Positions 1 to 2,375 of a DNA stretch of 64,000 nucleotides are shown piece by piece (the stretch's first letter is position 1; every line of letters starts with the position of its first letter). The stretch spans positions 162,580,897-162,644,896 of the forward strand of contig NC_085845.1 in assembly GCF_035594765.1 (NCBI RefSeq), read 5' to 3'. The translations under genes were made by a program, and so were the position numbers. The DNA is from Anolis carolinensis. Lineage: Eukaryota. The notes below the pieces were generated by a model that did no database searches, was not told the origin of the DNA, and worked only from the letters and a program-made list of their open reading frames with translations.

Positions 1-402
1 GCAGTTCTCTGTTGGACCAGGAGATGCTTGGGTCGTGAAGTGTCAGCCATGGAATTCCCAAAATCACAGGGAAATGGGGAACCTCGGTAACAAAGAAGGA
101 AATCTCTTCCATATGTTCCCTTATCCACATTCTGTTGGGTTCCGACCACTGGCTTACGGGACCCGTCTTGAGGGGGCGGCCATCGATGGCTTGCACCACA
201 CGGGCGTTCTTGAAGTCATGATATTGTAATCCCAGAGAGTCGGCATACTCTCTATCAATGAAATTGTTTGTGGCTCCTGAGTCTATCATGGCATGGACCA
301 TGACGGGCCCTTTTTTTGCTGACCACAAGGTGACCACTAGAAGAAATAGGACCCCGGTTGGCGGCTCTTGAGTGGGTTTTTTGACCGGGTTGGCGAGCCT
401 CT
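1..402 (-). CDS. pol: pol N-terminus (aspartic protease), partial, -1 frame relative to gag
   Basis: Manual translation of the minus strand gives ...GPVMVHAMIDSGATNNFIDREYADSLG...VILGIPWLTLHDPSISW. The D-S-G catalytic motif has its Asp codon at 283-281. The frame is open to the window edge. Confidence 0.9.
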
Positions 403-1389
403 CTACGCCCGGTCACTGGCTTCCCCCGCCGGCTGTGCGCCAGCCGCCTCAGATGCCTTCGTCTCCGTGGAGGACGCCGCCGCCAGACGGGCGGCGGGCT
501 TCCCCTTGGCTGGGCACTCTCTGGCGAAGTGGCCCCCGTTTCCGCAGTAACAACAGAGATTTAGGCATTGGCGGCGGGCCTTCTCGGCGGCATCTAATCT
601 GGGACGCACATTGCCCAACTGCATCGGCACCTCTTCGCTCCCTCTGGGGTATGGGGCTGGTGGCGGGGGTCTCCATACTGGACGCGGCTGGACGCCGGTG
701 GGAGCGGGAGGTTTCACCCCAGCTCTACTGCTCTGGCCTCGGACCCATTGTTTTCTGTTGGCAAGCATGACTTCAGCTCGTAAACATTGATCAATGAGTG
801 CTTCAAGAGAGTGGGGAGGATCCACCTTGGAGATTTCTTCCAGCATCTCAATGTTGAGACCCTCCCGAAATTGTCCTTTGAGGGCTACATCGTTCCAGCC
901 GGTGTTGTGGGCCAGCACTCGGAACTCGGCTATGTACTGGGACAAGGGTCTGTCCCCTTGGGAGAGGCGCCGGAGTTTGTGGCCGGCTGCCTCCAAATTG
1001 TCCTCGATTCCCCAGGTCGCCTTAAGGTGGTCCAAGAAATGTTGCGCTGACCTTAGATGTGGGGAGACTTGGTCGAACAGTGCCGTCGCCCAGTTGGCCG
1101 CTGGCCCGTCCAAGAGACTGTAAATCCACGCCACCTTGATGTCTTCTTGGGGAAACTCGGCAGCACGGGCCTCTAGATAAGCCTGGCATTGGCGACGGAA
1201 AACATGAACCTTAGAAGCTTCTCCAGAAAACTTGGTTGGCAACGCCATGGCCGGGAGACGGATTCCGCGCTCCTTCAAACCCCTTATTTCCCCATCCTGC
1301 GCATTGAGCTTGTCACGGATGCGGTCCACTTCGTCCTTGTCGATGGTGTAGCTAAGTGGCTGGCCACCCGGCACGGTTCCGGTAGACAT
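403..1389 (-). CDS. gag: Gag (capsid plus CCHC nucleocapsid) of the gypsy element, 328 aa
   Basis: Motifs LPTKFSG, LSQGDRPLSQYIAEF and WNDVALKGQFREGL, plus the zinc knuckle CCYCGNGGHFAREC, are typical of Sushi/PEG10-like Gag. Confidence 0.93.
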   Translation of the reverse strand: MSTGTVPGGQPLSYTIDKDEVDRIRDKLNAQDGEIRGLKERGIRLPAMALPTKFSGEASKVHVFRRQCQAYLEARAAEFPQEDIKVAWIYSLLDGPAANWATALFDQVSPHLRSAQHFLDHLKATWGIEDNLEAAGHKLRRLSQGDRPLSQYIAEFRVLAHNTGWNDVALKGQFREGLNIEMLEEISKVDPPHSLEALIDQCLRAEVMLANRKQWVRGQSSRAGVKPPAPTGVQPRPVWRPPPPAPYPRGSEEVPMQLGNVRPRLDAAEKARRQCLNLCCYCGNGGHFARECPAKGKPAARLAAASSTETKASEAAGAQPAGEASDRA

Positions 1390-1419
1390 ACTGGCCTAGG
1401 TTAATTGGTGCTTAGGGTG

Positions 1420-1429
1420 GCGGAGTCAA
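1420..1429 (-). promoter_or_regulatory. Primer-binding site, self-priming type (TTGACTCCGC)
   Basis: Starts 2 nt after the LTR end, lacks the TGG of a tRNA PBS, and is perfectly complementary to LTR positions 1958-1949. Confidence 0.75.
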
Positions 1430-1431
1430 AC

Positions 1432-2375
1432 TGTCACGACCCAGGCTGCAGAGCACCAATAACCATACACAGAGGCCAGAATCTAACTAATATCTTTATT
1501 GAAGGAATATATAAAGTTAATAAAAGCAAGTGTATGAAATAGTCCAGAAATAGACCTTTCAGGAAAGGTCAAAATTAGTCCAAAGAAACAATGTCCAATA
1601 TGAAATATTAAGGTCCAAAGTTGTAATCCAATAACCGAAACACTCACTTTGCCAGGCAAAGTGAGGGGAGATGACAAGGTCTTTTAGTCCGTGAAACTTG
1701 AGCGAGGCTAGGAAGTAACTTGATTCTTGGGAAAACGAGGCTTGATTCAAGGCAACAAGGAAACAAGGAACAAGAACAAGATCCGTGGTAATTTCTTGGC
1801 AAAATCCGGGAAACAAGACGAGGTTGAGTCTTAGAAAGCAAGGCAGGATTCGTGGAGTAAACAAAGCTGGGAACGAAGGCTTGGCGACAGGAACGGAGGC
1901 TTGGAAGCGGAGTAGCTGTCCACACACGCTACTCCGGTTGCTGACGAATTGACTCCGCAAGATCCCTTTGTGGGTAAAACACCTAAATAGGGTCCCGTTT
2001 TCCCGCCCAAGAGCAGTTCTCTGGAGAACCAGAAACGAAAGCTATTTTCTGAGTCCAGATGCATGACTCCCTAAAGTTTCCCATGGGAAGCAGGCTTAAT
2101 CAGCTGAATGCTTAGCAGCTATCCTAGCACTCCTGCGAGACGCCTGATCGACTCCTCTCTGTTGTTTACAAAAATCATGGCGAGAAAACGTAGGAGATTT
2201 AGGCTCAGGGCTTGTTTGACAGACTTCTGGAAGACAAATCTCTTGCAGGTGCAAGGTTTCCAAATCTGGCTGGGAAAGTTCCAATTCTGACTGAAACGGC
2301 GAAAAACCCAAGTTTTCCTCTTCATCTGGCACCACAGTGCCAGGAATGGGACTACATTGCCCATGGGTCATCACA
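1432..2375 (-). repeat. 5' LTR (944 bp) with TATA-like TATTTA (1989-1984) and AATAAA (1500-1495)
   Basis: TG/CA termini, 10/12 terminal IR, and promoter and polyA motifs in element sense orientation. Confidence 0.88.

Follow-up and report, generated by a model that had tools for sequence, protein, structure and literature searches.

The window, by which we mean the whole 64,000-nucleotide stretch of DNA that was analysed, carries on its minus strand only the front end of an anole-type LTR retrotransposon, namely a 5' LTR, a primer binding site (PBS), gag and the start of the protease (Table 1). The LTR runs from TGTGA at 2375 to TGACA at 1432. Both of its ends are backed by public contigs of the same organism, which depart from the window at 2375/2376 on one side, and on the other side four contigs of run X2 show dissimilar loose ends at 1432. 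A second LTR copy and a tRNA gene were sought within the window and none was found. Elsewhere in it lie a non-LTR retrotransposon (59668-54892, minus strand), with an ORF1-like frame followed by endonuclease and RT frames in two pieces, and a host exon (44136-43201, minus strand) for a leucine-rich-repeat protein with an LRRNT, presumably resembling a small leucine-rich proteoglycan such as keratocan.

Table 1. Features of the element at the window's start, in order of position
Feature	Position	Strand	Basis
Aspartyl protease at the beginning of pol (-1 frame), cut off by the window edge	2..412	-	sequence and domain matches
gag (Retrotrans_gag, DUF4939), CCHC-type knuckle near its end	403..1389	-	sequence and domain matches
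Predicted U5-leader stem, leader side in two arms (1412-1399, 1397-1391), stopping right before the gag ATG at 1389	1391..1412	-	folding
Primer binding site UUGACUCCGC, from +3 after CA, without TGG	1420..1429	-	sequence
5' LTR, TG...CA, 944 bp	1432..2375	-	ends backed by contig break points
Predicted U5-leader stem, U5 side in two arms (1479-1473, 1464-1452); GU-rich, at the position expected for a poly(A) downstream element	1452..1479	-	folding
Polyadenylation signal AATAAA, the only one in the LTR, 69 nt before the LTR end	1495..1500	-	sequence
R arm GUCA of the short predicted R-U5 helix, pairing with UGAC 1436-1433	1942..1945	-	folding; weak alone
Predicted self-primer GCGGAGUCAA, the predicted RNA 5' end (U3/R border)	1949..1958	-	sequence, pairing
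TATTTA, a TATA-like word 31 nt upstream of the predicted start	1984..1989	-	sequence; 9 of 22 relatives have a similar spacing (30-36 nt)
Reading frame of U3, 91 codons, which supplies the C-terminal tail of integrase when read in the 3' LTR copy	2096..2371	-	identity to P0193
RRSARIAAK codons, HMGN/Dot5-like motif (putative acidic-patch binding)	2111..2137	-	motif comparison

Gag shares 91% identity with models from Anolis carolinensis, which bears out the lizard origin proposed in an earlier sequence-only reading of this DNA, and 35% with marsupial PEG10, the sole relative of solved structure found for it. RT/RNase H and integrase are known through A. carolinensis models of the family, the window itself stopping in the protease. 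The integrase models contain H2C2, rve, SH3 and a chromodomain, which scores above the cut-off for PF00385 in P0183-P0185 and is linked to the LTR of the window via P0193, whose last 91 residues are the U3 frame of the window. The order gag (CCHC)-protease-RT-RNase H-integrase, with gag and protease taken from the window and the rest from the family models, fits Tf1/sushi chromoviruses. The identity of Gag, taken together with the chromodomain of the family integrase, marks an anole chromodomain Ty3/gypsy element, which by its predicted proteins is a member of the Tf1/sushi group, where it had been placed earlier. Vertebrate chromoviruses are described in PMC2774666 as a V-clade of Amn-like and Sushi-like elements, and a chromodomain element of A. 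carolinensis is credited there to Piskurek et al.; the family in the window may be that element (cf. PMID 19118606). Metaviridae are reported as still active in Anolis, and one Tcn1 element as having neither kind of PBS, in the accessible text of PMC11011659, PMC2864245 and PMC3670739.

In the region 415-403, the pol frame of the window copy, in -1 relative to gag, opens only at 412, just past a stop codon, at a place where the frame of the A. carolinensis models continues further upstream. A canonical slippery heptamer was sought at 560-395 without success. This particular copy may be defective.

The predicted priming signal and its counterparts in relatives

The CA of the LTR is followed by GT and then by the PBS, TTGACTCCGC (1429-1420), whose complement GCGGAGTCAA lies at 1958-1949 with a match of ten out of ten and is present in the window a single time in each orientation. 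The letters on which the sequence-only reading had built its proposal of self-priming were verified on the minus strand: the PBS two nucleotides past the CA and lacking TGG, its exact 10-nt complement inside the LTR, TATTTA upstream of that copy, and AATAAA at 1500. Primer and PBS are separated by 519 nt, and the distance from the primer to where the LTR ends is 527 nt.

Against a background of 5000 dinucleotide-shuffled LTRs, a complement of at least 10 nt to the first 20 nt after the CA occurred 17 times and the exact 10-mer 4 times, and in none of the 5000 was the match accompanied by a TATA-like word at 23-36 nt upstream. Two of 68 control windows of 20 nt from gag and protease had an LTR complement of at least 10 nt, so that the 10-mer alone is an event of about 3% and modest evidence; the case rests on the position, the TATA spacing and the relatives rather than on the 10-mer by itself. 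The best pairing with the LTR end and PBS (-22.9 kcal/mol) was given by 22-nt LTR windows at 1958-1960, the best value elsewhere being -18.0.

Among the same-organism contigs a minority has one extra base immediately upstream of the primer. Of their 204 variant places, none of the 40 listed lies in the primer, the PBS or 1391-1485, an absence that has no power for the two 10-mers and is a weak hint for the 95-nt block 1391-1485. One contig each in runs X1, X2 and X9 aligns over 22 nt around the primer and then skips about 280 nt of R (window 1661-1940); these contigs are perhaps a diverged subfamily that has retained the primer region. Right after the primer, a 12-bp hairpin (1939-1905, minus strand) conceals a 7-nt decoy complement of the primer.

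For comparison with related elements, a search with an RT alignment yielded 80 loci, 79 from metagenomes and one viral; the gag alignment was too variable for scanning, and gag or pol used as single queries had no matches among the viral contigs. A usable LTR/PBS junction was available in 22 of the 80, the other 58 remaining outside the hand analysis. Fifteen of these junctions were set independently by a two-copy repeat, and in the seven with a single LTR the end was selected from 1-4 candidates in knowledge of the complement. An exact LTR complement of 9-13 nt, beginning from +1 to +3, is present in 14 of the 22 relatives, which differ in the letters of their PBS and belong to several separate clades; complements of at least 9 nt divide into 7 of the 15 with a two-copy repeat and 7 of the 7 with a single LTR. 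A complement of 8 nt was found in six more, all from one clade and all among the 15 with independently set ends (L029, L055, L063, L068, L070 and L078). It lies 88-89 nt from the LTR end, is accompanied by no TATA word, and, once a bulge is allowed, reaches about 13 pairs in the two members checked; in this clade either R-U5 is very short or the pairing is an inverted repeat of U5. L071 and L077 have a complement of 6 nt. The former fits if one G-U pair is accepted and has a suitably spaced TATAA, and the latter, with no complement to its own LTR beyond the 6 nt, fails the pattern. A strict TATA word stands 30-36 nt upstream of the complement in 9 of the 22. Because kin share traits, these relatives amount to roughly eight or nine independent lineages and not to 22. 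Compensatory change between PBS and LTR, to which the earlier reading had looked for confirmation, is seen at the level of families, the complement being kept despite the differing letters.

A blind scan of all 80 loci, with TNACA, complement and TATA as its pattern, returned 25 loci in sense orientation, 10 in antisense and 5-9 in each of five shuffles. It recovered L020, L025, L026, L052 and L075, which the hand search had missed; that search, of limited range, found no primer in these five or in L002, L010, L011, L021, L030 and L039.

The distance from the primer to the LTR end is 88-415 nt in the relatives, compared with the anole value of 527 nt, the longest of 23 elements. Three loci of the fish clade have the primer 316-415 nt from the LTR end, and two of them (L013 and L018) carry AATAAA 53-64 nt from that end; AATAAA near the LTR's 3' end is given as a trait of Sushi LTRs in PMC3601003. 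The sequence-only reading had called the R region unusually long. As a novelty we reject this, since AATAAA near the LTR 3' end is a Sushi trait and a long R is usual for the group; from the distances in relatives and this trait it follows that the long R is a matter of degree.

In a quick RT tree, with an unresolved base, the Anolis RT is sister to L065 (SH-aLRT 96) and falls outside the clade of fish proteins. It is 62-64% identical to L003, L005, L006, L007, L009 and L065, and 51-56% identical to the fish-clade loci; L009 has the junction GGTCGTGACA/GTTTGA in common with the window. The anole family may not be the closest one to the fish Sushi elements.

Predicted folding of the leader RNA

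Tf1 priming is described as requiring three helices, a 'pretzel' (bioRxiv 2022.12.06.519325 / PMC10085805), and candidates for all three can be drawn in the anole RNA. The central helix of primer and PBS would have 10 bp and a predicted energy of -17.6 kcal/mol. Flanking the PBS, a U5-leader duplex is predicted between 1464-1452 plus 1479-1473 and the two leader arms, with an energy of -31.2 kcal/mol that none of 200 shuffles equalled, and the R-U5 helix (GUCA 1945-1942 with UGAC 1436-1433) has only 4 bp and is equalled by 23% of 200 shuffles. In the relatives, the U5-leader helix is above shuffles in only 3 of the 22.

The pretzel is a pseudoknot, which ViennaRNA cannot draw as a whole. The primer helix and the U5-leader stem cross, so that the program gives them as alternatives, with probabilities of 0.37 and 0.63, respectively. 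With loop costs left out, the bound primer plus the U5-leader stem sum to about -46 kcal/mol, compared with -34 kcal/mol when the fragment is free. The primer-helix probability of 0.37 applies to a start at 1958 and varies between 0.00 and 0.90 from other starts, so the folding leaves the start unfixed. The complete R-U5-leader RNA is no stabler than its shuffles (z -0.13), and a search of Rfam gave no matches. Neither the U5-leader stem nor the integrase tail encoded in U3 figured in the sequence-only reading.

Probable self-priming and the competing explanations

From our analysis we consider it very likely that the RNA begins at about 1958 and primes reverse transcription with its own first 10 or so bases, in the manner of Tf1. 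This reading is supported by the exact geometry at the locus and by the complement of PBS and LTR in relatives whose sequences differ. On the model of Tf1, Pol II would start at the primer, and the 5' end of the RNA would pair with the PBS across the 519-nt loop, held by the two flanking helices. The RNase H of RT would then cut after about base 10-11, and synthesis from the freed 3' end would give a minus-strand strong-stop DNA about 520 nt long. We infer, in addition, that the U5-leader stem is possible only at the 5' LTR and would there hide the GU-rich sequence below AATAAA; by masking these bases, as we propose, it would keep the RNA from being polyadenylated before the PBS.

That S. pombe Tf1 primes itself, and that the mechanism is proposed for the Tf1/Sushi group, had been put forward as established and is indeed in print, with vertebrate elements included. 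Butler et al. 2001 are said to have predicted self-priming for the Tf1/sushi group. In Tf1 the first 11 bases pair with the PBS and RNase H cuts between 11 and 12, according to PMC7175516, and self-priming is presented as a common feature of Tf1/sushi elements of yeast and vertebrates in PMC6317226, PMC4600332 and the S. osmophilus paper. Self-priming in the anole element is thus an ordinary, predicted trait of its group, and both the mechanism and the pretzel are already in print. The accessible literature has it demonstrated for the yeast Tf1 and implicated elsewhere. A young amniote family of many copies can serve as a test case, with a prediction precise to the base, namely a start at 1958 and a cut near 1948.

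It would be logical to ask whether the same pairing is used in a way unlike that of Tf1, with a start further upstream, a primer excised on both sides, or a primer supplied in trans by a partner RNA or by transcripts of solo LTRs. The start at 1958 is deduced from the sequence, the anole loop is the longest of the 23 elements, and the contig depth of the LTR exceeds that of the internal region in all four runs, as expected where solo LTRs are common; the fission-yeast Tf2, moreover, is reported to use alternative start sites and to be controlled by the choice among them (PMC5341516). We regard these variants as unlikely, however, given that the complement ends at 1958 and that the distance from TATA to primer is 30-36 nt in the anole element and 9 of 22 relatives, just what a start at the primer predicts.

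Still less probable, in our view, is that priming at the PBS is done by a piece of a host tRNA or by some other small RNA, the LTR complement having a different role or none. Priming by half-tRNAs is known in other LTR elements, though the accessible part of the same source (PMC6317226) reports it only for Ty1/copia lineages, and here the PBS lacks TGG and the PBS letters of the relatives vary, each tracking its own LTR. Chance, finally, to which the two control windows in 68 lend something, is scarcely tenable as the source of the 10-nt match and is largely refuted by the relatives and the blind scan, with the match and TATA spacing combined in none of the 5000 shuffles, the layout repeated in 14 of 22 relatives and the scan returning 25 of 80 loci against 5-10 of 80 in its controls.

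Self-priming of the Tf1 kind, as preferred here, also agrees with what is described of Tf1 and Tf2 of S. pombe, Tj1, Tosmo1-3 and Tcry1. Like the anole element, these are Ty3/gypsy chromoviruses in which the PBS right after the 5' LTR complements LTR sequence below the TATA box. Their two flanking helices have predicted counterparts in the anole, of which the R-U5 one is only 4 bp. The anole primer is of 10 nt vs 11 in Tf1, its host is a vertebrate, and its priming is predicted from sequence. The anole Gag has a CCHC knuckle and pol lies in the -1 frame, whereas the fission-yeast elements are characterised in the accessible accounts by a Gag without CCHC and by one ORF or a stop codon; unlike in the Tf1-type elements, the anole integrase extends into the LTR. 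With the vertebrate Sushi/Amn chromoviruses (PMID 19118606) the element shares a Gag related to PEG10 (35%), and with Sushi elements, as far as described, AATAAA near the LTR 3' end and self-priming predicted for the group, but its RT stands outside the fish clade in the quick tree and its primer is farther from the LTR end (527 vs 316-415 nt).

An integrase tail read from U3

The U3 frame opens with an ATG at 2371 and is 100% identical to residues 422-512 of the A. carolinensis integrase model P0193. In such models the frame stays open past the chromodomain, across the PPT and on into the LTR. Of 48 examined, which are automatic gene models gathered by their likeness to the tail, 34 reach the LTR, and 30 of these go on to a motif at its end while 4 stop early. 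The protein models of the family end in RRS(A/L)RIA(A/T)(K/R) 84-96 residues into U3, the core RRS(A/L)RI being present in 28 of the 30 full tails. Tail lengths are 84, 91 or 96 in 28 of the 30, differing by whole codons with the frame kept. Within residues 1-64, 11 are acidic, 2 basic and 9 Pro, an acidic and proline-rich composition. Across 31 tails, R79, R80, S81, R83 and I84 are conserved at 97-100%, in comparison with 10-42% for H65, D66, V74, D75, Q76, H88 and S89, and the motif varies most at the position where HMGN and Dsup differ from each other. Among the listed variants of the tail frame, 4 of 8 fall at first or second codon positions, from which we take most of the tail to be loosely constrained.

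Foamy virus Gag tethers through an acidic-patch motif. The HMGN (RRSARLSA) and Dsup (RRSSRLTS) motifs are reported to bind the acidic patch via arginine anchors (PMC12487698), and the yeast Dot5 motif RRSARIAT to bind the nucleosome acidic patch in dependence on R6, R7 and R10 (PMC13347269). The anole tail has in common with HMGN, tardigrade Dsup and Dot5 the core RRSxR(I/L) with its three arginines, and RRSARIAA of the window equals the Dot5 stretch in 7 of 8 residues. Unlike in those proteins, the anole motif stands at the end of a retrotransposon integrase, is encoded by an LTR, and has a binding role that is predicted. A precedent for an integrase reading into the 3' LTR is described for group A of the plant CRM elements (PMC3059260), in which a CR motif replaces the chromodomain and priming is by tRNA-Met; in the anole the tail is added behind the chromodomain.

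We propose that the tail motif would act as an arginine anchor docking the integration complex on the H2A-H2B acidic patch, beside the chromodomain. On this proposal U3 would have turned integrase-coding and gained an anchor of the HMGN/Dot5 type, by which integrase could grip the acidic patch directly, in a layout convergent with that of plant CRM; the arguments for and against it are in our judgement evenly matched. For a nucleosome-binding role of the tail as such, the odds are about even, as read from the motif. A motif of five residues can arise by chance, and RRSxR(I/L) was found in none of the 183 other proteins compared. Likewise, none of 34 chromodomain-like tails of the 80 loci has it, and all of them are short (29-76 residues counted from YLVxWxG vs 150), so the tail is not group-wide. 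The 91-residue tail gave no match in Pfam, the PDB or the Atlas beyond the chromodomain.

In a literature search over titles and the openings of abstracts, covering few subscription papers and neither Piskurek et al. nor Butler et al., no such motif was met in a retrotransposon integrase. The HMGN-like integrase tail encoded by the LTR may be the part of this analysis that a specialist finds unexpected. If the motif does bind nucleosomes, a direct anchor on the acidic patch would join the ways in which LTR retroelements find chromatin, the unusual length of the anole LTR would be explained, and a mobile element would join HMGN, Dsup and Dot5, in which the motif has been shown to date.

As a minor observation, genes for H2A and H2B lie side by side in the 912-kb viral contig L081 (1862-3062, minus strand) and encode residues resembling those of the acidic patch.
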